Source: a virus
Taxonomy: Duplodnaviria > Heunggongvirae > Uroviricota > Caudoviricetes
DNA: 43,405 bases
IMG/VR virus record: IMGVR_UViG_2563366824_000007
Direction: 5' to 3' (one strand)
The stretch's first letter is position 1; the number at the start of each line of letters is the position of its first letter. The position numbers and the translations under genes are program-made. Below are positions 2,552 to 18,917 of the stretch, piece after piece. The notes below the pieces were generated by a model. That model did not search any database. It was not told the origin of the DNA and saw only the letters and a program-made list of their open reading frames with translations.

Positions 2552-2914
2552 ATGTTAAATATATTTGCAAGGTACACCTCGATTGGTGTGCTGAACACAC
2601 TTATACACTGGGTGGTTTTTGGTGTATGTATCTATGCCGCGCATACCAATCAGGCTCTGGCAAACTTCGCAGGTTTCGTTGTGGCTGTGAGTTTTAGCTT
2701 CTTCGCGAATGCAAAATTCACATTCAAAGCATCAACTACAACGATGCGCTACATGTTATATGTCGGGTTCATGGGAACACTGAGTGCTACTGTTGGATGG
2801 GCTGCTGATAGATGCGCACTTCCTCCGATGATAACTCTTGTCACCTTCTCCGCCATCAGCCTGGTGTGCGGTTTCGTCTATTCAAAGTTCATTGTCTTTA
2901 GGGATGCGAAATGA
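2552..2914 (+). CDS. gtrA: GtrA-family bactoprenol-linked glucose translocase (flippase)
   Basis: 120-aa small 4-TM protein, first gene of a three-gene operon next to int; overlaps the next gene by 4 nt. Confidence 0.85.
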
Positions 2915-3828
2915 AAATTTCTTTAGTCGTTCCGGTCTTTAACGAAGAGGCCACGATACCTATTTTTTATAAAACCGTGCGCGAATTTGAAGGGCTTCAG
3001 CAGCATGAAGTCGAGATAGTCTTCATAAACGATGGCAGCAAAGACGCTACAGAATCAATTATCAACGAGCTTGCTGTTGCCGACCCGCTTGTGGTTTCGC
3101 TGTCGTTCACACGTAACTTCGGCAAAGAACCTGCCCTGTTCGCAGGTCTGGACCATGCTACCGGGGAGGCAATTATCCCGATTGACGTTGATCTGCAAGA
3201 CCCTATCGAAGTTATTCCTCACTTGATAGAGAAATGGCAGGCCGGTGCAGATATGGTTCTGGCTAAACGCTCTGACCGCTCCACTGACAGCAGGCTGAAG
3301 CGTAAATCTGCTGAGTGGTTCTATAAACTTCATAACAAAATCAGCACCCCTCAGATAGAAGAGAATGTTGGCGACTTCCGGCTCATGTCTCGCGAAGTAG
3401 TGGAAAACATTAAGCTCATGCCAGAACGAAACCTGTTTATGAAGGGTGTGCTGAGCTGGGTTGGTGGTCGAACCGAAGTCGTAGAATATGCGCGAGCAGA
3501 ACGCGTTGCAGGAAGCACAAAGTTCAATGGATGGAAGCTCTGGAACTTGGCGCTGGAAGGGATCACTAGCTTCTCAACATTCCCGCTGCGCATGTGGACC
3601 TATATTGGGTTATTTATTGCATGTATATCATTTACATACGGTTCATGGATGATAATTGATAAATTAATTTTTGGTAATAATGTACCTGGATACCCTTCAA
3701 TTCTTGTATCAATATTATTTCTTGGCGGCATCCAGTTAATTGGTATTGGAGTGCTAGGTGAGTACATAGGGCGTATCTACGTTGAGGTTAAGCAGCGTCC
3801 AAAGTATATATTAAAGGATAATAAATAA
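2911..3828 (+). CDS. gtrB: GtrB-family bactoprenol glucosyltransferase (GT2)
   Basis: 305 aa with GT2-like N-terminal region (VVPVFNEE ... DGSKD ... DVDLQDP) and two C-terminal TM helices; stop overlaps the gtrC ATG. Confidence 0.9.
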
Positions 3829-5285
3829 TGATTTTCAAAAAACAAATTAAATTTATATTCGTAATTTTATTATTTGCGTCATTATTTATGCTATATCACT
3901 TTGCCAGCTTAAACATATTCCCACCAAATACAGATGCGGCAACAGTGCTTTTGCTTGGTAAGGATATGTCAGAAGGTAATTACTTACTTCATGGATGGAT
4001 GCTATCCACGGTTCCTTTTTACTTTACAGAAGTATCTTTTTATGCGATCGCCTCTATATTATTTGGCTACAGCAGTGAGCTTGCATATATAATACCACCA
4101 GCGATGTATGCTACTGTGATATTTTTGATATACAGGCTGTCTACAAATAAATCATTAGCATTAGCGCTAATTATATTCTACTTTGTTTTTCCTGCTGACA
4201 TGGCTGTTACATCAATGCTTTCAGCGTGCATTCACATGGGTACATACATATTTATCATTGGATGCTTAATATTTACAGAAAAGTATATTAAAACAGAAAA
4301 AATATTATTTGTATACTTTTCAACCATACTGTCCTCTATGGCTATTTTTAGCGATAATATCTCAGTCTATATATACGTTGCACCGCTAACATTAGCAGCA
4401 ATGTTTTTGTTGCACAAGGAAAGAAAAAAGAAATACCTTATTATAATGGCTGGATTGTTTTCTTCATATTTAATTTCCAAGGCGATCGGTTTTTTGTTTT
4501 TAAACCTTGGAAGCTTTACATTGCCAGGACTAACAGATGTAAAGATTGTTGAGTATGACAATATTTTAGTTAATATAAATACCGCAGTAAGTGGAACTTT
4601 ATTGTTTTTTAATGCAGACATATTTGGTGAGCAGATAACACCATCACTGCATCTATTATCTAAAGCAATACGCTTTGCTGGTGTTGTTGCATTAATTTAC
4701 TTCACTTTCAGAAATCTTTTTAAAAACAGAAGCGTTATTGATATATGTTTGTCATTGTCTATTTTAATCATGACATCTGCTTATATTGGTAGTAACCTCC
4801 CAAGAAATATATGGACAATAAGATACCTTGTTCCCGTCTTCATTATGGCAGTAATTCTTTTGTCAAGATCTAAATTTAATAAAAAAAGCATTATTTTATT
4901 AATAGCTTTTTTGGGCATCATATCAGGAATTAAAACAATAAATATTAATGGCTCCACTGATAATAGATACAATCAGATATCATGTATTAGAGAAAAAATC
5001 AACGAGCACAAAGTGAATTATGGATATGCCCCTTTTGCATTTACCAACTCTGTTGGTGTGAATGGAGACATAAAAATAGCAAATATACTTTTTGATAACA
5101 ATGAAATTAAAAGAGACAACTGGCTTACAAATAGCGAATGGTATAACAAAGGAAATAATTTCTTTATTCTTGAGAATAAAGAACAATTGAATATTGTGAA
5201 GAAAATTTATGGTCAACCTGAAGATATTGAAAGTGTGTGTGATGTGATTTTTGTCAAATACAGAAACCACATTTACGTCAAATAA
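3828..5285 (+). CDS. GtrC-type serotype-specific O-antigen glucosyltransferase (specificity unknown)
   Basis: 485-aa polytopic membrane protein in the third position of the gtr operon; AT-rich relative to flanking genes; translationally coupled to gtrB. Confidence 0.65.
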   Translation: MIFKKQIKFIFVILLFASLFMLYHFASLNIFPPNTDAATVLLLGKDMSEGNYLLHGWMLSTVPFYFTEVSFYAIASILFGYSSELAYIIPPAMYATVIFLIYRLSTNKSLALALIIFYFVFPADMAVTSMLSACIHMGTYIFIIGCLIFTEKYIKTEKILFVYFSTILSSMAIFSDNISVYIYVAPLTLAAMFLLHKERKKKYLIIMAGLFSSYLISKAIGFLFLNLGSFTLPGLTDVKIVEYDNILVNINTAVSGTLLFFNADIFGEQITPSLHLLSKAIRFAGVVALIYFTFRNLFKNRSVIDICLSLSILIMTSAYIGSNLPRNIWTIRYLVPVFIMAVILLSRSKFNKKSIILLIAFLGIISGIKTININGSTDNRYNQISCIREKINEHKVNYGYAPFAFTNSVGVNGDIKIANILFDNNEIKRDNWLTNSEWYNKGNNFFILENKEQLNIVKKIYGQPEDIESVCDVIFVKYRNHIYVK

Positions 5286-9613: not shown

Positions 9614-10692
9614 CAGAACGGGTCCTCCTGTACTCTGGCTTTTTTCTTTTTCCGCGCGCTGGGGGCTTCGGGTTCAGGCAGATAAGCATCAGGTGGGCCG
9701 ACACGGATTTCCGTCAGGGTGCCGTTCTGGTCCTGAGTAAACGTGACTTCCGAAACAAGCAGTTCGGTATTGTCGAAACCACAGACCGGATCAAAGACAA
9801 TCACCCGCTGGTTGGGCTGCCACAGCGTACCGTTACCCTGTCGCCAACCCTGCACCACATAGGTGGTTTCATCCGTCCGCGCCGCCCGTTGTCGGGCTTC
9901 AAAGTCCGCACGGGCAATACAGCCTGCCCCCGTAGCCTGCCCTGTCTGCCTGATATACATCGGACGGTAACGGGCAATAAATGCGTCCTCTGTGCGGGCC
10001 CGCAGCGCGGTGGTGGTGGCCTCACCGAAATCATCGTCGTTTCCGGCACGCTGCCCCGCCACCTGGTAAACAGAAAACCGCTCCCGGATACTCTTCTCCG
10101 TATCACAGGAAAGGATGTTTTCCCCAAGTACCAGCGCGGTATGTGCCCGCGTTGAGCCAATACCACCAATCACCAGCCTGCCGTGCGGGTCGTCATAAGC
10201 CAGCGCCTGCTGCTGACCGAGTATTTTGTTGATCACCTCAATCACCGTTTCACCGTGATCAGGCTGGACATCCGGAATAACACCCGACGGCGCATCGCTG
10301 TTCACCACCTCAATGCCGAAAGGCGCAGCAAGCGCCTGCGCAATCTGTACCAGCGATCGTCCGTTAAACTGTGTCGGTTCGGCTGCACAGTCAATCAGGT
10401 CAGCAGTCAGACTACGTCCGGCAATACCGGTGCTGACCGAACGGGCATCGTAACGAACGGGGGTCGCCTCCACCCAGCCGGTGATCACCAGCTCATCACC
10501 AATCAGCACTTCCACTTTTGAACCATTTTTAATGCGCGGCTGAAGCGTGGTGATACCCTCATCTCCCGGCCACTGGCGGGTGATCTCCACACTGAAATCC
10601 CGCGCCAGCCGTTCAATACCGGCACCGATGCGCACCGATGTCCAGCCATTCCACTCCCGGCCATTTACCCGTAGCGTGACATTGTCGTTCAT
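9613..10692 (-). CDS. Baseplate hub / tail protein (Mu gp44 P-like, gpD-like)
   Basis: 359 aa; synteny downstream of the DNA circulation gene. Confidence 0.7.
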   Translation of the reverse strand: MNDNVTLRVNGREWNGWTSVRIGAGIERLARDFSVEITRQWPGDEGITTLQPRIKNGSKVEVLIGDELVITGWVEATPVRYDARSVSTGIAGRSLTADLIDCAAEPTQFNGRSLVQIAQALAAPFGIEVVNSDAPSGVIPDVQPDHGETVIEVINKILGQQQALAYDDPHGRLVIGGIGSTRAHTALVLGENILSCDTEKSIRERFSVYQVAGQRAGNDDDFGEATTTALRARTEDAFIARYRPMYIRQTGQATGAGCIARADFEARQRAARTDETTYVVQGWRQGNGTLWQPNQRVIVFDPVCGFDNTELLVSEVTFTQDQNGTLTEIRVGPPDAYLPEPEAPSARKKKKARVQEDPF

Positions 10693-12017
10693 TGCACTGG
10701 CACCTTCAGAGGGATCACCGGCACAAAGCCGGGATGCGTAATGGCATTACGCCGGATAATGTCCGCGTCACGCGCCGCGTTATCAAACCAGGTCGCCGCC
10801 AGCACCAGTGCGGGTAAAACCTCATCCGGTGTGCGCTGAATGATCCGTGCAGACTGTTCAAGGCGCGTGTTGATATCCGCATTCAGATCTGCTTTCACCC
10901 GGCGCAGCGCCAGAAACAGCGCATCGCTGGTTGTACGGGACAACTCCTTATCAATTGCCGTATTCAGTATGTCGCGAATGTCAGTCAGTTCTTCCCACGT
11001 CGGCAGGTCAACCGTGTTTTTCACCGCCGGTGCATTGTTCAGTGCCGAATGCGTGACGGAAGGCCAGCCACTGCTCTGCGCGGGTGTTGTTGTCTGCCCC
11101 ACTGCGGAATTCTGCATCACCGCGAAAGTTGTTGGCGCAGGCAATCGGGTAACGGCATACGCCGCTTCGCTGATTGCGGTCGTACGAAGAGTGCTGGCAA
11201 CCACGTTACGCTGCTGCGTCGCCGTGGCGGTGGTTTTACTGTCCGTTTTCCAGACGCCGCGCGGTTGCAGATCGCTGCCGAGGCTGACACCGGAAAGCGT
11301 TTTGATCATGGTGACCAGGTCGCTGGCGTTACCATAAAGGCGTTTCCCGGTACGCCACATTTTCTGCACCTGCTCAACGAAATTTTTGCCTGACGATGGC
11401 GGCGGCAGAAGTACCGAGATATCCCCCTGCAACAGCCTGGCGGCATCCGATACGGCAGAATCCACCACTTTCATCGCATCAGAAACATACCCCAGCATTA
11501 TGCTGGCATTACCGATAACGTCGTTCTGCACGAAATCCGCCACACCATCGATACTGAAACCGCTGAAGCTGTCACTGATGCAGTCATCCAGTGCAGAACA
11601 GGATGACATCAGCGTCTGCGCCGTCGCCGCACCTGATGTGGGGTAAGAGAGTTCTCCTGCTTCGACAAACTTCAGGTCAAAGCGGACAATACGCCCTTCA
11701 CTCTTCGATGTGCTGACCCGAACCTCTCCGTCAACACAGACTTTCAGCTCACCGTAAGTCGGATGGACAAGCGTGCCGGGACCGGGTTTATTCAGCGCGT
11801 CAATCAGGCGATCGCGCTGGTCAAAGCAGTCATCTCCCACCACATAAGCCGTGATGGACGGGCGGAAAGTGATTTTCCCCAGGTCTTCGGTATAGGGTTT
11901 GTCGCGGTTCGGGTATTCGTGCGTTTCCACACGACGACCGGTTCCCGCACTTTCTTCTTCAACCTTAAACGGCACGCCGCGAAATGACGCGCCCTGAAGT
12001 CTGTCTTTCCACGTCAT
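10689..12017 (-). CDS. DNA circulation protein (Mu gp43 N-like)
   Basis: Track ORF starts at 12059, but its first 14 codons translate a terminator hairpin; in-frame ATG at 12017 (MTWKDRLQGASF...) preferred. Confidence 0.75.
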   Translation of the reverse strand: MTWKDRLQGASFRGVPFKVEEESAGTGRRVETHEYPNRDKPYTEDLGKITFRPSITAYVVGDDCFDQRDRLIDALNKPGPGTLVHPTYGELKVCVDGEVRVSTSKSEGRIVRFDLKFVEAGELSYPTSGAATAQTLMSSCSALDDCISDSFSGFSIDGVADFVQNDVIGNASIMLGYVSDAMKVVDSAVSDAARLLQGDISVLLPPPSSGKNFVEQVQKMWRTGKRLYGNASDLVTMIKTLSGVSLGSDLQPRGVWKTDSKTTATATQQRNVVASTLRTTAISEAAYAVTRLPAPTTFAVMQNSAVGQTTTPAQSSGWPSVTHSALNNAPAVKNTVDLPTWEELTDIRDILNTAIDKELSRTTSDALFLALRRVKADLNADINTRLEQSARIIQRTPDEVLPALVLAATWFDNAARDADIIRRNAITHPGFVPVIPLKVPVQ

Positions 12018-12030
12018 ATAAACTCCGGAT

Positions 12031-12053
12031 ATAAAAAAACCCGCCGAAGCGGG
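12031..12053 (-). terminator. Rho-independent terminator after the lipoprotein moron
   Basis: Minus-strand hairpin CCCGC-ttcg-GCGGG followed by a 7-T run, 18 nt downstream of the lipoprotein stop. Confidence 0.65.
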
Positions 12054-12070
12054 TTTCATTAAATTATCGC

Positions 12071-12748
12071 TTATCTAAAGTTACTTATTACCCGATACCT
12101 TATGCTTTGGTTACTCGCATCAAGTACTTCGAATTTAGCCCCTTTATAGCCAATTGTTTTAGACTCCGCGAGATCATACTCAACATCGTTGTTGAAGGCC
12201 GGGCGTGCTGTATTCGATGAAAATTCACGATATCCAATGTTGATTTTGTTTCCGACCCTTCCGTTGTAAAGCAGAGCTTGCTGGAAAGATGAATCACCAC
12301 TGATATTCAGAGTAACCTTTTCGATAGGCATGTTAGTTTCACAGTTGGTAACACCGAAAACTGTTATTACACATAAGGCATTCTTTTTCTTTTCTACCAT
12401 GATGCCCTGCCACATATCGGCAAGGGCTGCCTTTTCCACATTGGCTGAATCAGCACCGTTTGTGAGAAAGTAATAATCAGCCTTGTTATCCTCACCAACC
12501 TTTTTCAGCATCCCCGGAGTGATCGTATACGCCCAGGAAATTCTCGCAGGAGCATTAACCTTCAGACCTTCAAACCTCTGTGACACCCCCTGCTTAATCA
12601 TTGAATCACCGACATAAGCTGTATTAATGCTTCCTACAGGAGGTTCACTATAATTTTCTGTTTTTGGTAAATAATTGTACTTCGGAGAGGTACATCCCCC
12701 GAGTAAAAGAGCCATGCCGACAACTGAATAAATTGTTAAGACTTTCAT
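12071..12748 (-). CDS. Lipoprotein of unknown function (moron in tail module)
   Basis: Start at ATG 12748 gives MKVLTIYSVVGMALLLGGC..., a signal peptide with lipobox LLGGC; AT-rich relative to neighbouring tail genes; has its own terminator. Confidence 0.7.
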   Translation of the reverse strand: MKVLTIYSVVGMALLLGGCTSPKYNYLPKTENYSEPPVGSINTAYVGDSMIKQGVSQRFEGLKVNAPARISWAYTITPGMLKKVGEDNKADYYFLTNGADSANVEKAALADMWQGIMVEKKKNALCVITVFGVTNCETNMPIEKVTLNISGDSSFQQALLYNGRVGNKINIGYREFSSNTARPAFNNDVEYDLAESKTIGYKGAKFEVLDASNQSIRYRVISNFR

Positions 12749-12829
12749 ATCCCTATTCCCATCATTAAAGTATCGGACTAATCCTACCAAGAACCTGCTA
12801 AACGACAAAACCCGTGTTTAAGCGGGGTA

Positions 12830-14671
12830 TCAGCCCCCCATACCAAATCGGGTGTAGCCAACGTCGTGATTCACGTCGATACCGCTGGATCGCGTTTCCA
12901 TAACCCGCATACCCGGAGGCGAATTCACAAAAGAGACCTTGATCTCACCGTCAACTTTTGGCGCAGAAGCTTTGTTAATCATGAAGGGATTCGGGCCTGT
13001 GGCATCGGAGGCGTTGTTTGCCTGAGCCGGATCCATGGCCGGATAAGGTGTGTATCCCCGCGCCGGGAATCCCGTCCCATAAGCATCATAAGCACCCGCG
13101 CCCCACTGCGCAGAGTTAATGGCATCGACCGTGTCACCGGAACTGTCGGTAAACCACTCAATAATTGGCTTCAGCTTGTCCCACATATCCTGAAACCACT
13201 TAACAACCGGTCCCCAGTTATTGATTACCATCCCCAGCGGCGACCAGGCAAAAACCTTCTTCAGAAGTTCCCAGCCAGCCTCAAAATAAGGACCAATGGT
13301 TTCCCAGAGCTTCTTGAAATAAGGTCCGACAACATCCCAGTTAGTGATAATTAATCCCGCAGCCAGGGCTATCGCCGTCGCAATCATTCCAATCGGCGTC
13401 ATCGACATGATCCTGCTGACAATACTGATGGCCCCGCCAACGCCCATCAATCCCAGTTTCAGAATCGCAAGACCGGCAGCAAGCCCGACGACGCCGCGAA
13501 TAACCCGGGGATTTTCATCCGCAAACTTCGTGAATTTTTCCCCTAACTCCCCCAGCCATTGCGTGATATTTTTGGCGTCACCAGAAAATGCGCCGCCAAT
13601 AGCCGCAAGGCCGTTAGTTGCGGTCCCCGTCATTGCCTCCCACAGGTTGGACAGCGTACCAAGCTGGGCCTGAACACGTTTATTCAGGCTGGCCTGTTTA
13701 TTCATCTTCTGCTGGATCTGATCGTAGCCATCCTTTCCTTTATCGATTAGTGCATTGACCACCTGAAGGGTTTCGGCATCATCACCAAATATTGCCTTAA
13801 GTACACCTGTTCGCTTAACGTCGGTCAGTTTTCGCAGCTTTGCCAGTTGCCTGAACATGTTATCAAGACCGCCAAAACTTCCTTTGCCGTCAGTAAAATC
13901 GAGCTGTACCCCGAGTTTCTGGCGGGCCATGACTTTATTGACGTCCCTGATTTTCTTAACGCTTAATCCGGACTGGATAACTTTTCGCAGGGCATTACCT
14001 GCCGACTCCCCGTTCATCCCCATCTGATCCATCATGACGCTGATGGGGGCAAGGCTCTGTGCAGCCTGAAGACCCTCCTTGTTCACCATCTTCAGAACAG
14101 AACTGGTTTTAGTGAAGAAGGACAACATGTTGGTATCGTCAACGCCCAGATAAAACGCCTTCTGGATAGTGTCGAACAGCCCCATCATGTCTTCTGACGC
14201 CGTTCCGGTAGCATCCTGCATCTTTGCAGCAAACTCAGCAGCCGCTTCCGGTGTTTTTTTCAGTTGTACCGCAAGATAAGCTGTCGCTTTACCCACACCA
14301 CCCAGAATGTTTTCTGCCGGGATCCCCTGACGCACCAGCATCTGCATCATGTTCTGGAAATCAGCCGTTGTACCGGGTAGCTGGTTACCCAGACCAATAG
14401 CCAGTTTATTGATGTCCTGAAAGCTCTTTCCAACCTCGCCGTTCGCATCCATCATGGCGACTTTCAGCCCGGTGGCGGCGTTTTCCTGATCGGCATAAGA
14501 TTTCAGGGAAAGCGTCAGACCCGCAGCCAGTCCGCCACCAAGCGCCAGCCCACCCTGTGACGCTTCTTCCGCCTGGCGTTTAAATCCCCGGATTTTCTTT
14601 TGCATTTTCGACAGCGCGGGAGAAAGCCTGTCGACACCGGTGATCAACGCCTTAAGCTCAAATTCAGCCAT
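12830..14671 (-). CDS. Tail tape measure protein
   Basis: 613 aa, Ala/Gly-rich with helical N-terminus and hydrophobic central segment; downstream of the chaperone frameshift pair. Confidence 0.85.
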   Translation of the reverse strand: MAEFELKALITGVDRLSPALSKMQKKIRGFKRQAEEASQGGLALGGGLAAGLTLSLKSYADQENAATGLKVAMMDANGEVGKSFQDINKLAIGLGNQLPGTTADFQNMMQMLVRQGIPAENILGGVGKATAYLAVQLKKTPEAAAEFAAKMQDATGTASEDMMGLFDTIQKAFYLGVDDTNMLSFFTKTSSVLKMVNKEGLQAAQSLAPISVMMDQMGMNGESAGNALRKVIQSGLSVKKIRDVNKVMARQKLGVQLDFTDGKGSFGGLDNMFRQLAKLRKLTDVKRTGVLKAIFGDDAETLQVVNALIDKGKDGYDQIQQKMNKQASLNKRVQAQLGTLSNLWEAMTGTATNGLAAIGGAFSGDAKNITQWLGELGEKFTKFADENPRVIRGVVGLAAGLAILKLGLMGVGGAISIVSRIMSMTPIGMIATAIALAAGLIITNWDVVGPYFKKLWETIGPYFEAGWELLKKVFAWSPLGMVINNWGPVVKWFQDMWDKLKPIIEWFTDSSGDTVDAINSAQWGAGAYDAYGTGFPARGYTPYPAMDPAQANNASDATGPNPFMINKASAPKVDGEIKVSFVNSPPGMRVMETRSSGIDVNHDVGYTRFGMGG

Positions 14672-14846
14672 GTGTGCGTTTCTCCTGCTCTATCCTGTTT
14701 GCCTGACTGACCAGCAAGGGAATTTCACTGATCGGCATATTCAGCAATTCGAAGGGATTAATGCGCCAGTAGCTGGCGCAGTCAAAGAAGCGATCAGTGA
14801 GGTATTCAGCCGTCAGGCCTGGAGGAAAAAACCAGCCACAAGCCAC
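14664..14846 (-). CDS. -1 frameshift extension of the tail assembly chaperone
   Basis: Overlapping -1 frame ORF passes through the same TTTTTTC site (plus-strand 14825..14831) and ends at the tape measure start; lacks its own ATG (track start is GTG). Confidence 0.5.
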   Translation of the reverse strand: MACGWFFPPGLTAEYLTDRFFDCASYWRINPFELLNMPISEIPLLVSQANRIEQEKRTHG

Positions 14847-15082
14847 GCCGCTGCATTCAGGTCTGCCGGAGACATCTGGTCGACAGAGCTTTGCGGCACT
14901 TTCGCCAGCCGCACAATGTATTTCGACACCACATGCGCCAGAAGTCTGACGGACTCATCCTGATTCATCTGGTAGGGATACCCCAGCTCGCGGACATCTT
15001 TCCCGGTGGGCTCATCAAACTCCAGTACGGAGAGTGTCTCGCCATGAGCGGTAATCGGTTTCTTTAACTCAAGCTCTTTCAT
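14813..15082 (-). CDS. Tail assembly chaperone (Mu gp41-like)
   Basis: 89-aa ORF between the tube and tape measure genes; contains slippery heptamer T_TTT_TTC near its 3' end. Confidence 0.7.
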   Translation of the reverse strand: MKELELKKPITAHGETLSVLEFDEPTGKDVRELGYPYQMNQDESVRLLAHVVSKYIVRLAKVPQSSVDQMSPADLNAAAWLVAGFFLQA

Positions 15083-15438
15083 TACTGGTAATCCCCTTCT
15101 TCACCGTGGAACTCAAGATCGACCGTGCCTTCTTCGGCATTATGGTTCGCTTCGCCGTGCAGCCAGGCAGACGACAGTACATAGACCTGACCGTTCGCCA
15201 GCTCGGCAGTGATGGTCATCTCATCAGACGAGGTGATTTTGCTCACCGGAAAATTCTTCGGCACCTTGAAGGTCCCTTTGACATAAGGCGCACGGTGAGT
15301 TTCCTTGCGGTCCACTGAACCGTCCAGGCCGATGATGTCATCATTGACCGTCCTGTTCATGGGCACCTCAATGCCGCCGGTCAGCGATAGCTGCTGACCG
15401 TCAATTTTGAAATAACAGGTTCCCCCGATACGGGCCAT
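15082..15438 (-). CDS. Tail tube protein (Mu gp40-like)
   Basis: 118 aa directly downstream of the sheath gene; stop/start coupled. Confidence 0.8.
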   Translation of the reverse strand: MARIGGTCYFKIDGQQLSLTGGIEVPMNRTVNDDIIGLDGSVDRKETHRAPYVKGTFKVPKNFPVSKITSSDEMTITAELANGQVYVLSSAWLHGEANHNAEEGTVDLEFHGEEGDYQ

Positions 15439-16934
15439 TATGCGGACTCCTCTGAATACTGAAGACGGAACTGGTTAACCACGGCAAAGACACGCAACTG
15501 GTTAACATAGTCAGGCGGGAACAGCGTGTTCAGGCGGTTCGGATCGCTGGCATCACGCTCCACAACCAGGTACTGCTTGAACAGTTCGTAGTTTTCCACG
15601 ATCCCCGCACGCTCAAGCTGACGGTAGGTTGCCAGCAGTTCCCCTTTGATCACCGCCGGGGTGACAATCGCCTGACCGGGACCAAAGCGGGTACCGTCAC
15701 TGGCAAGCTTGTGACGCCCGTACTTACTGGTAATGACGGATTTCAGTTTGCGCAGCACATACGCGCTGGTATGCAGCGTCTCGCTGTCGAGGTAGCTGTT
15801 ATCCGCAACCCCGTAAGCATTTTTCCTGTACGTGGTGACATCACGCTGAATGCGCAGTACCCCGCTTTCGACATACGCCGTTGCCACGCCATGAGACAGC
15901 AGGGTCTGCTGCTCGGTCATCGTGAACCGTTTCCCCTTCGGCGCAGGCAGCATACCCACCAGCTCACCGGTCTGCGTGGGACGTGCCGGATCGTTGCGGA
16001 TAAACACCGCTGCGCGGGCGGTACGGCTTGCCGCCAGCTCGTCGGCAGGTGTCTGGGTTTCTTTTTCGTACCCCGCCAGGGTAATGTGCTGCTGGTTAAA
16101 CTGGTCACCTGCGGTCACCAGTTCTGACAGCGTACCGGTCTTTGCCGTATACACATGACCATACAGCTGACGCGCATAGCTCCAGCGACCGCTGGTATCG
16201 TTCATCTCGGTCACCAGCGTGTTAACGGAGGCCGTGTCGTTGAACGGCAGACCGATATAATCAAACGGCTCATCCGCCATTGCAGCCACCGCACCGGTGA
16301 GAACAGGAGCGCCCGTTCCGGCGGTACCCGTCGCCACAGCAATCTGTACACCCGCTGGCAGCACTTCGCCCCCACCAAAGCCGTAGTAATTGAGGCTGAC
16401 AGGAATTTCATTCCCGCAAAGTCCCTTATGACGCGCGGTCAGTGTGACCACGCCAGCCGAAAATGAGGCCGTAAACGGCAGGGCCGGAACGGCATTGATA
16501 GCATCCTGGATACTGCTGGCAATGGTCGCGACGTTATCGCCGTTGGTCACCGGTGCCTGCACGCGGGTACGTCCCACATACACATTCACCGTGCCGGTTT
16601 CGGTTGCCGCCCCGGTCACCGTCAGAGTAACCGTTGCCGCCGCGCCTGTGGCTTCCGGAACGGCAATCACATACAGCTCGCCAAACGGGTCGGTCTGGCG
16701 ATAAGCCTCGACCATACGCGCCAGCTGACTTCCCGCACCACAAATCTGGCGTGCATAGTCTGCCGACGGCATCAGCACCAGACTGTTGGCAACAATCTCT
16801 GCACCGTTATTGGCGTGACCAATCAGCAACGATGCTCCGCTGTCCTGTGCAGTATTCGCCGCCTGGTTATCCATTTCCGCATAAAACAACGGAACCAGCG
16901 TATTCGACGGAATGGTGTTAAAGCTTATCGTCAT
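15438..16934 (-). CDS. Contractile tail sheath protein (Mu L-like)
   Basis: 498 aa; N-terminus MTISFNTIPSNTLVPLFYAEMDN typical of myovirus sheath proteins. Confidence 0.88.
   Translation of the reverse strand: MTISFNTIPSNTLVPLFYAEMDNQAANTAQDSGASLLIGHANNGAEIVANSLVLMPSADYARQICGAGSQLARMVEAYRQTDPFGELYVIAVPEATGAAATVTLTVTGAATETGTVNVYVGRTRVQAPVTNGDNVATIASSIQDAINAVPALPFTASFSAGVVTLTARHKGLCGNEIPVSLNYYGFGGGEVLPAGVQIAVATGTAGTGAPVLTGAVAAMADEPFDYIGLPFNDTASVNTLVTEMNDTSGRWSYARQLYGHVYTAKTGTLSELVTAGDQFNQQHITLAGYEKETQTPADELAASRTARAAVFIRNDPARPTQTGELVGMLPAPKGKRFTMTEQQTLLSHGVATAYVESGVLRIQRDVTTYRKNAYGVADNSYLDSETLHTSAYVLRKLKSVITSKYGRHKLASDGTRFGPGQAIVTPAVIKGELLATYRQLERAGIVENYELFKQYLVVERDASDPNRLNTLFPPDYVNQLRVFAVVNQFRLQYSEESA

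Positions 16935-17096: not shown

Positions 17097-18913
<1,817 letters not shown>

Positions 18914-18917
<4 letters not shown>

Follow-up and report, generated by a model that had tools for sequence, protein, structure and literature searches.

Long-tailed dsDNA phages reportedly share a conserved frameshift cassette for their tail assembly chaperones, said to have been described by Xu, Hendrix and Duda in 2004. In lambda, the G/GT pair is located between the major tail (tube) gene and the tape measure gene, and a -1 slip near the end of the first ORF generates two products with a common N-terminus, with a ratio of roughly 1 in 30 and with roles that have been proposed for both G and GT (PMC5009743). 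In the contractile-tail phage P2, a -1 frameshift at T_TTT_TTG has been reported to give rise to the E/E+E' pair (Christie et al., 2002, cited in PMC3091744); the latter account describes the P2 frameshift and points out that P2 has no downstream structure. Mu has been reported to use a -2 shift, and its gp41 protein (Mup41, 144 aa) belongs to PF23746 (Gp41_Mu). Tandem slippage on an X_XXY_YYZ heptamer is also used by the IS3-family orfA/orfB genes and by dnaX. The dnaX and IS3/IS911-type signals are stimulated by a stable hairpin or pseudoknot that starts about 5-9 nt downstream of the heptamer and/or by a Shine-Dalgarno-like sequence located 6-17 nt ahead of it.

We have analyzed a stretch of 43,405 nt (hereafter, the window) that carries an SfV/SfI-like prophage with a Mu-type contractile tail. 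As judged from sequence comparisons, the tail assembly chaperone gene of this prophage very probably forms a programmed -1 ribosomal frameshift cassette.

Anatomy of the chaperone cassette

The cassette is embedded in a Mu-like tail module that comprises DUF2635, sheath, tube, tape measure and DNA circulation protein genes. The genes considered here are encoded on the minus strand. The sheath gene (498 aa; 15438..16934; PF04984, PF17482 and PF17481) provides the context, and the tube gene (118 aa; 15082..15438; PF10618, E=2.4e-33; phrog_185) is located immediately 5' of two overlapping ORFs that separate it from the tape measure gene (613 aa; 12830..14671; PF10145, E=3.8e-27). On the coding strand, a promoter and terminator scan of the interval that separates the tube gene from the tape measure gene found none.

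According to the ORF list and its translation, the first of the two ORFs, named G here, encodes the zero-frame product of 89 aa (9.9 kDa) that the first-pass annotation had designated as a chaperone. It occupies 14813..15082 on the minus strand, starting with an ATG at 15082 that shares 1 nt with the stop codon of the tube gene (TAATG) and finishing with ...WLVAGFFLQA* at the TGA in 14815..14813. G matches the Pfam family PF10109 (Phage_TAC_7) with 60.3 bits (gathering cutoff 25; E=1.9e-16), its residues 4-86 covering profile positions 2-78 of 79, and it also matches the PHROGs family phrog_166, 'tail protein' (E=7e-24). PF10109 is the family of P2 gpE, Mu gp41 and 'gp14'. On family membership, and sited as it is between the tube and tape measure genes, G is assigned as the tail assembly chaperone gene.

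The heptamer T_TTT_TTC, the proposed -1 slip site, lies at 14825..14831 (read on the minus strand from 14831 to 14825), where the codons GGT TTT TTC encode G84, F85 and F86 and place it in the X_XXY_YYZ phase of the G frame. The TTT codon (F85) is five codons 5' of the G stop, in agreement with the first-pass annotation, and three sense codons follow TTC. Translation of the -1 frame from 14831 gives the 55 sense codons that had been claimed, i.e., FF plus 53 residues (PPGLTAEYLTDRFFDCASYWRINPFELLNMPISEIPLLVSQANRIEQEKRTHG), up to the TGA in 14666..14664; we refer to this extension (14664..14831, minus strand) as the T part. The predicted frameshift fusion GT (14664..15082, minus strand) would consist of 86 zero-frame and 53 -1-frame residues (139 aa, 15.8 kDa), with ...AGFFPPGLTAEYLTDR as the predicted junction and FFDCASYWR and INPFELLNMPISEIPLLVSQANR as predicted T-specific tryptic peptides. 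The earlier statement that the -1 frame ends exactly at the tape measure start was essentially right, the GT stop and the tape measure ATG (14671..14669) overlapping by 8 nt (ATGGCTGA). The AGGAG ribosome-binding site of the tape measure gene (14686..14682) lies within the T coding region.

The closest described relative of this arrangement is the P2 E/E+E' system. P2 gpE matches PF10109, as G does, and the P2 site GGT TTT TTG (G83, F84, L85) falls at profile position 78, the same as G84, F85 and F86 of the window. The P2 products have 91 and 142 aa compared with 89 and 139 aa here, the P2 E+E' fusion overlaps the tape measure gene T by the same 8 nt, and both phages belong to the contractile-tail type. 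The heptamers differ in their last base, which is C in the window (T in the subgroup of SfIV, P27 and ST64B) and G in P2. From this profile alignment, we regard the slip site of the window as homologous to the P2 E/E+E' frameshift site. Lambda G/GT resembles the cassette in lying between the tube and tape measure genes, in having two products with a shared N-terminus and in the -1 slip near the end of the first ORF, but its heptamer is G_GGA_AAG and its tail is non-contractile; the description 'G/GT-type' given by the first-pass annotation thus holds as an analogy, not as a statement of closest kinship. The sheath and tube genes of the window are of Mu type, not of P2 type. A chaperone of the Mu gp41 type, with its -2 shift, is not supported: the window protein matches PF10109 only, with no match to PF23746, and the +1 (/-2) frame is closed after 16 codons. 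Mu gp41 itself weakly matches PF10109 (24.7 bits, just below the cutoff of 25).

The T part matches phrog_32181 in PHROGs (E=4e-40); the T domain has no Pfam family, and no NCBIfam model matches either the T part or the GT fusion. Searched against the P2 E' family PF06528 (Phage_P2_GpE), the T part gave no match even at E up to 10, and the profile-profile comparison with P2 E' was colinear and weak (E=0.0007-0.0013, probability 18-26%), so that a remote homology between them is possible. A further reading, which we consider unlikely, is that the T domain is a tube-recruiting module in its own right, taken up in place of the P2 E' domain with the slip site retained. A GT profile searched against the sequences of solved structures gave nothing above noise (COP9 subunit 4, E about 1). 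The full-length fusions present in the protein database (P0001-P0006) were discarded, being assembly artefacts full of indels and not natural fusions.

Conservation of the slippery site and rival explanations

A slippery site not conserved in related prophages had been named as something that would refute the idea, and we have examined its conservation in 31 distinct divergent sequences from Enterobacterales, Derxia, a Methylococcales genome and the phages EPP-1, AH07, SfIV, phiP27, ST64B and YeP1. T_TTT_TTC or T_TTT_TTT (T_TTT_TTY) was kept at the homologous G/N/R/S/V-F-F codons in all 31. The first Phe codon was TTT in every one of them, and the preceding codon always ended in T (GGT in 24, AAT in 3, CGT in 2, AGT in 1 and GTT in 1). 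This wobble T is invariant though the amino acid varies, which amounts to a constraint on a silent site. The zero-frame tails beyond the site are unconserved, ranging from 5 to 28 codons among the relatives.

Protein conservation of the -1 frame starts exactly at the heptamer. The GT fusions of 7 divergent phages have 138-140 aa and align over their full length with gaps of only one or two residues; the fusions remain colinear down to 29% identity, a level down to which G is also conserved, and the T part carries the conserved motif A-x-x-[FW]-W-[RK]-[IL]-N-P. Among the relatives, the extension region is stop-free in the -1 frame only. Its codons vary at the third position in 37 of 45 columns compared with 14 of 45 at the second position, and 52% of the codon differences are synonymous when read in the -1 frame versus 9-11% in the other two frames. 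By these comparative measures, the -1 extension evolves as protein-coding sequence. The 8-nt overlap between the GT stop and the tape measure ATG is found in 20 of 27 relatives.

The IMG/VR scans with the P2 fusion and the GT alignment recovered near-identical copies only, and these served as the basis of a population check on 80 prophage copies. The canonical heptamer is kept in 77 of them and broken in the other three by GGG in place of GGT (two GGG TTT TTC and one GGG TTT TTT C). SfV, SfI and SfII, all of them isolated as phages, carry the same cassette, and free particles have been reported for SfI (PMC3636060). In the prophage of the window, an IS3 element is inserted in the tail terminator gene; because of this interruption, this copy is probably defective and its chaperone cassette may never be used, although the frameshift signal is intact. 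The window contains an IS3 copy with A_AAA_AAG.

These data bear on several other readings of the locus. It could be argued that the slippage is by RNA polymerase, rather than by the ribosome, at the T6 run (T7 in relatives), so that some of the mRNAs gain one U and are read as GT by ordinary translation. The conserved element is indeed a homopolymer run, and one near-identical relative (L150) keeps the T6 run one base out of ribosomal phase, but bacterial transcriptional slippage has been described for runs of 9 A or T (PMC5009743), longer than the run of 6 in the window. Moreover, all 31 divergent lineages keep the T run exactly in the phase of the ribosome, and at the homologous P2 site, TTTTTTG, the frameshift has been annotated and described as translational, which makes polymerase slippage very unlikely. 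Even less likely is that the -1 ORF is an independent small gene of 60 aa translated without any frameshift from its own start, the GTG at 14846, five codons 5' of the heptamer in the -1 frame. Such a gene would fit the GenBank record of phage vB_EcoM-689R6, where the ORF is annotated separately as a 'hypothetical protein', the fact that PHROGs treats the extension as a family of its own (phrog_32181) and the practice of NCBI, which likewise calls the P2 E' ORF separately as a 'GpE family phage tail protein'. However, 21 of 28 divergent lineages lack any ATG, GTG or TTG in the open -1 stretch 5' of the heptamer, and the start codons that do occur in the other lineages are not preceded by a Shine-Dalgarno sequence. 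This supports the view that the extension, for which most lineages have no separate start codon, depends on the start of G. The beginning of the protein conservation exactly at the heptamer also speaks against a separate gene, and an independent gene would not require the constraint observed at the silent sites of the heptamer.

The least likely explanation is a chance juxtaposition, or a disused relic, of a common heptamer and a fortuitously open frame. TTTTTTC occurs 24 times in the window versus 11 expected, and therefore the heptamer alone is not significant; furthermore, of 55 in-phase heptamers located in ORFs of at least 100 aa, 6 (about 1 in 9) are followed by a -1 frame that stays open for at least 50 codons. 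The IS3 insertion in the prophage and the loss of the canonical heptamer in 3 of 80 close relatives could also be read as signs of disuse. This reading is already contradicted by the comparative data, since relatives with as little as 29% identity in G still share the slip site as well as the frame, length and protein sequence of the extension, and the cassette is carried by the isolated phages SfV, SfI and SfII. On comparative grounds, the position between the tube and tape measure genes together with the conservation in relatives raises this site above chance, and a programmed -1 ribosomal frameshift is the reading that we adopt.

RNA structure and the expected slip frequency

The sequence downstream of the heptamer was analyzed by folding 100 nt, by a consensus fold of 12 relatives, by counting the pairs of two helices in 15 relatives and by folding the +1..+45 region of 31 relatives against shuffles. 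At the usual stimulator spacing, none of the folds showed a convincing structure. The +1..+45 fold has -6.2 kcal/mol with a z of about 0.3 and reveals no consistent structure across the 31 relatives, and a weak 4-bp hairpin located 5 nt downstream of the heptamer has a z of about 0. By eye, the 17 nt upstream of the heptamer show no Shine-Dalgarno-like sequence, and an Rfam scan of 14550-15150 yielded no hit, apart from a sub-threshold chance match to a CRISPR repeat. Unlike the IS3-family and dnaX signals, which carry nearby stimulators, the site of the window has none that is supported, and it shares with P2 the lack of any obvious stimulatory structure downstream.

Two more distant elements were predicted. 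The hairpin UGCGCCAG-CUA-CUGGCGCA (14762..14780, minus strand) begins 44 nt 3' of the heptamer, far beyond the usual 5-9 nt; it is 93% paired within the TTTTTTC subgroup, without compensatory change, and absent from the TTTTTTT subgroup. It is probably a by-product of the C-A-S-Y-W-R codons and not a frameshift stimulator. The long-range +24/+90 helix of 10 bp is only 63% paired across the relatives.

Given that no stimulatory RNA structure is evident, the slip would probably be driven by the heptamer and occur at low frequency. In E. coli, only one A-site motif is more slip-prone than U_UU.Y, and U_UUU_UUC without a stimulator gave 0.12% frameshifting, about twice the background (PMC4066793). 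This reporter value of about 0.1% for this heptamer without a stimulator (PMC4066793) is well below the ratio of about 1 in 30 of lambda (PMC5009743), and therefore useful amounts of GT might need an unconventional enhancer. One candidate would be the +44 hairpin (14780..14762), in which the silent C positions do not vary within the TTTTTTC subgroup; the others would be the +24/+90 helix and the nascent chaperone peptide. We consider it unlikely that one of these enhances the slip or that the T domain results from a module swap; if true, any such enhancer would represent a distal or non-canonical stimulator for -1 frameshifting in bacteria.

Proposed mechanism and annotation of the cassette

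From the anatomy of the locus, its conservation, the coding character of the extension and the homology with the P2 site, we infer that slippage takes place as follows. Most ribosomes would synthesize the 89-aa chaperone and terminate at the TGA in 14815..14813. A minority would slip back one base on U_UUU_UUC while tRNA-Phe is paired with UUU in the P site and with UUC in the A site, both tRNAs re-pairing with UUU after the slip, and would then translate 53 further codons in the -1 frame to produce the 139-aa fusion, with termination 8 nt past the start of the tape measure gene. If the two products act like those of lambda G/GT and P2 E/E+E', the N-terminal region common to both would coat the tape measure protein, and the T part, found only at the C-terminus of the rarer product, would bring in the tube protein, in a G:GT ratio that would be fixed by the slip frequency. 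All the support for the predicted fusion is of a comparative nature.

The 139-aa fusion is annotated in none of the GenBank/RefSeq entries inspected (SfV, SfI, SfII, SfIV, phiP27, ST64B, EPP-1, AH07 and YeP1), nor in the five RefSeq E. coli chromosomes inspected. In these records, the extension appears as an apparent gap of 84-141 nt or as a 60-aa 'hypothetical protein'. Among the papers searched, no report of this frameshift for SfV, SfI, SfII, SfIV, P27 or ST64B was retrieved, although the tables of Xu et al. (2004) may list SfV. The cassette has matches in 1,099 of 5,426 complete E. coli genomes.

Taken together, the cassette is an ordinary, unannotated member of the known class of tail-chaperone -1 frameshift cassettes. 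The value of this result lies mainly in annotation, and the understanding of frameshifting or of tail assembly is unchanged by it. It also makes a small point on module mixing, i.e., that a Mu-type tail module can carry a P2-type -1 site and not the -2 site of Mu.

Tail gene order and the chaperone cassette

On the minus strand the tail genes run in the order sheath (16934..15438; PF04984, PF17482, PF17481), tube (15438..15082; PF10618), an 89-aa ORF (15082..14813; PF10109), tape measure (14671..12830; PF10145) and DNA circulation protein (12059..10689; PF07157). The 89-aa ORF, hereafter G, scores 60.3 bits (cutoff 25) against PF10109, which Pfam describes as 'Phage tail assembly chaperone proteins, E, or 41 or 14'. 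The 3' end of G reads GGT TTT TTC CTC CAG GCC TGA and contains T_TTT_TTC at 14831..14825 in the phase X_XXY_YYZ, as the first-pass annotation had correctly located and described it. The -1 translation from 14831, FFPPGLTAEYLTDRFFDCASYWRINPFELLNMPISEIPLLVSQANRIEQEKRTHG, stops at the TGA 14666..14664, giving an 8-nt overlap with the tape measure gene (ATG 14671..14669), in agreement with the earlier claim that this frame stays open up to the tape measure start. The +1 frame is closed after 16 codons. The predicted products are the 89-aa G (9.9 kDa) and a 139-aa fusion, GT (15.8 kDa), carrying the -1 extension, T.

The TTTTTTC heptamer by itself is no more than chance: it occurs 24 times in the window, and of the 55 X_XXY_YYZ heptamers that lie in phase within ORFs of at least 100 aa, 6 precede 50 or more open -1 codons. 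The case for a putative frameshift site stands on the comparison with relatives. The cassette region is 98-99% identical to that of the Shigella/E. coli phages SfV, SfI, SfII, vB_EcoM-689R6 and SKA5, and it is matched by 1,099 of 5,426 complete E. coli genomes. Distant relatives came from a phage collection (EPP-1, AH07, SfIV, phiP27, ST64B, YeP1) and from a scan with one genome per species (38 loci), which extends to Edwardsiella, Citrobacter, Kosakonia, Mixta, Symbiopectobacterium, Arsenophonus, Derxia and a Methylococcales genome.

Conservation of the heptamer and of the -1 frame

Conservation of the slippery site in related prophages had been named beforehand as a test, and the heptamer is kept in all 31 distinct sequences (T_TTT_TTC in 19, T_TTT_TTT in 12), always at the same codon position and with TTT as its first Phe codon. 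The preceding codon is GGT in 24 sequences, AAT in three, CGT in two, and AGT and GTT in one each; the wobble T is fixed while the amino acid varies, a case of selection on a silent site. The zero-frame tails 3' of the heptamer are unconserved and range from 5 to 28 codons. The predicted fusions of seven phages (138-140 aa) align over their full length with gaps of one or two residues at identities down to 29%, and the invariant residues of their T parts include A103, W106, N109, P110, R130 and I131. Past the G stop the -1 frame alone has no stop codons, and in it 37 of 45 third codon positions are variable against 14 of 45 second positions; 52% of the codon differences are synonymous in this frame, compared with 9% and 11% in the remaining two. 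In 20 of 27 lineages the fusion stop and the start of the tape measure gene share an 8-nt overlap.

These conservation data exclude a chance juxtaposition of the heptamer and the open frame. Translation of T as a gene independent of G is contradicted by the lack of any ATG, GTG or TTG in the -1 frame 5' of the heptamer in 21 of 28 lineages; where such upstream starts are present (e.g., GTG 14846 in the window), no Shine-Dalgarno sequence precedes them, so the extension is generally not makeable alone. Slippage of the RNA polymerase on the T run is an unlikely alternative. The run is 6-7 T, compared with the 9 A or T of the bacterial transcriptional slippage described in PMC5009743, and all divergent lineages hold it in the ribosomal phase. 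A single variant with a T6 run out of this phase leaves the transcriptional process a low probability. It is one of three exceptions among 80 near-identical IMG/VR copies, 77 of which keep TTTTTTC. The three (L150, L181 and L187) have GGG for GGT at the equivalent of window position 14831, giving GGG TTT TTC twice and GGG TTT TTT C once, which breaks the canonical heptamer and leaves a U_UUY tetramer or the T6 run. They may represent prophage decay, sequencing errors or tolerated weaker sites. Six database proteins resembling a full-length fusion (P0001-P0006, from metagenome and Logan assemblies) were rejected as natural G-T fusions; they show many local frame errors, near the T run and elsewhere, and have the appearance of artefacts from homopolymer errors in noisy assemblies.

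Proposed slippage and the search for a stimulator

In the proposed ribosomal shift, two tRNA-Phe would slip in tandem from UUU-UUC to UUU-UUU, with each still on a cognate codon. For A-site motifs in E. coli the hierarchy is A_AA.G > U_UU.Y > C_CC.Y, and frameshifting without a stimulator, with the IS911 stimulators and with the IS3 pseudoknot amounts to 0.12%, 0.89% and 7.6% for U_UUU_UUC, 0.33%, 0.45% and 10.2% for U_UUU_UUU, and 0.12%, 0.25% and 0.77% for U_UUU_UUG, the P2 motif (PMC4066793). Folding, pairing across relatives and Rfam, which has no match in the cassette region, revealed no convincing stimulator, and thus the slip at T_TTT_TTC is probably heptamer-driven and low in frequency. 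The 45 nt directly 3' of the heptamer fold no better than shuffled sequences in most of the 31 relatives (-6.2 kcal/mol, z = 0.3 in the window). A perfect 8-bp hairpin, UGCGCCAG-CUA-CUGGCGCA (14780..14762, minus strand), lies within the T coding region 44 nt past the heptamer; it is 93% paired in the TTTTTTC subgroup and missing from the TTTTTTT subgroup, and pair counts across relatives gave no compensatory change or covariation. It overlies the conserved C-A-S-Y-W-R codons, and its paired silent C's (TGC and TAC wobble positions) are unchanged in all 15 TTTTTTC-subgroup sequences. A 10-bp helix (14800..14791 with 14734..14725) has a z-score of -3.4 in the window but is only 63% paired across relatives.

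Phage context and relation to known tail chaperones

Relative to SfV, the prophage carries a 1,258-bp IS3-family element (17334..18591, plus strand) with a 3-bp target duplication, orfA at 17370-17717, orfB reaching 18583 and its own -1 heptamer, A_AAA_AAG, at 17666. The element sits in the homologue of SfV orf9, the tail terminator protein (PF23840), of which a truncated 113-aa ORF is left (18576-18917), so the prophage is probably unable to build or complete tails; the frameshift cassette itself is intact. In E. coli WP8-S18-ESBL-07 (NZ_AP022261.1), which matches the window at 100% identity in the chaperone region, the neighbouring sheath gene is a RefSeq pseudogene with an internal stop, a further sign of decay in many such prophages. 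Between the genes for the tape measure and the DNA circulation protein, about 780 bp (12062-12843) take the place of 23 bp in SfV and encode a 245-aa ORF (12071-12808, minus strand). This ORF has no Pfam match, its N-terminus (MKVLTIYSVVGMALLLGGC...) carries a signal peptide and is lipobox-like, and it looks like an additional non-tail gene ('moron') that has entered the tail operon midway. On the plus strand, an integrase (1209-2402), GtrA (2552-2914), a GtrB-like family 2 glycosyltransferase (2911-3828) and a 485-aa ORF without Pfam match (3828-5285) form the module for O-antigen glucosylation (serotype conversion) that SfV, SfI and SfII typically carry; the serotype-specific Gtr would be the 485-aa protein.

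Like G, P2 gpE matches PF10109, and its annotated -1 site, GGT TTT TTG (G83-F84-L85), ends at profile position 78, as does G84-F85-F86 of the window. The sizes are also similar (E 91 aa and E+E' 142 aa in P2), and E+E' likewise overlaps the tape measure gene T by 8 nt. The P2 shift is described as occurring at TTTTTTG without downstream structure in the passage of PMC3091744 citing Christie et al. (2002) and Xu et al. (2004). The C-terminal parts belong to different families: P2 E' is PF06528, whereas the T part of the window has no counterpart among Pfam and NCBIfam models and matches only phrog_32181, a family of no assigned function. When profiles of 20 T and 21 E' sequences are compared, the alignment is colinear but weak (E about 1e-3, probability 18-26%) and brings together a motif A-x-x-F-x-W-x-P-x-E-L. 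The nearest models for the window's tail are the sheath and tube genes of Mu, for which a -2 shift is reported and whose gp41 belongs to PF23746; the window thus combines a Mu-type tail module with a P2-type slip site. As PMC5009743 describes for lambda, G forms a coat on the tape measure protein and GT, through its T part, recruits the tube subunit; by analogy, the two products predicted here would have the same roles.

No joined CDS is present at the cassette in the records of SfV, SfI, SfII, vB_EcoM-689R6, EPP-1, AH07, SfIV, phiP27, ST64B and YeP1, nor in the three RefSeq E. coli chromosomes inspected. The vB_EcoM-689R6 record gives a 60-aa ORF as hypothetical. Databases are inconsistent: they enter the P2 E' ORF separately as 'GpE family phage tail protein' (39-52 aa), list the SfV-type T ORF as a 'hypothetical protein' or omit it, and give fragments of the ST64B-type T frame at contig ends the name 'phage tail assembly protein, partial'; a joined CDS is given for none of these. 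In the literature searched we found no report of frameshifting for the SfV-type group, which Xu et al. (2004) may already list. Unsurprising to a specialist, the cassette is an unannotated member of a very well-known class.
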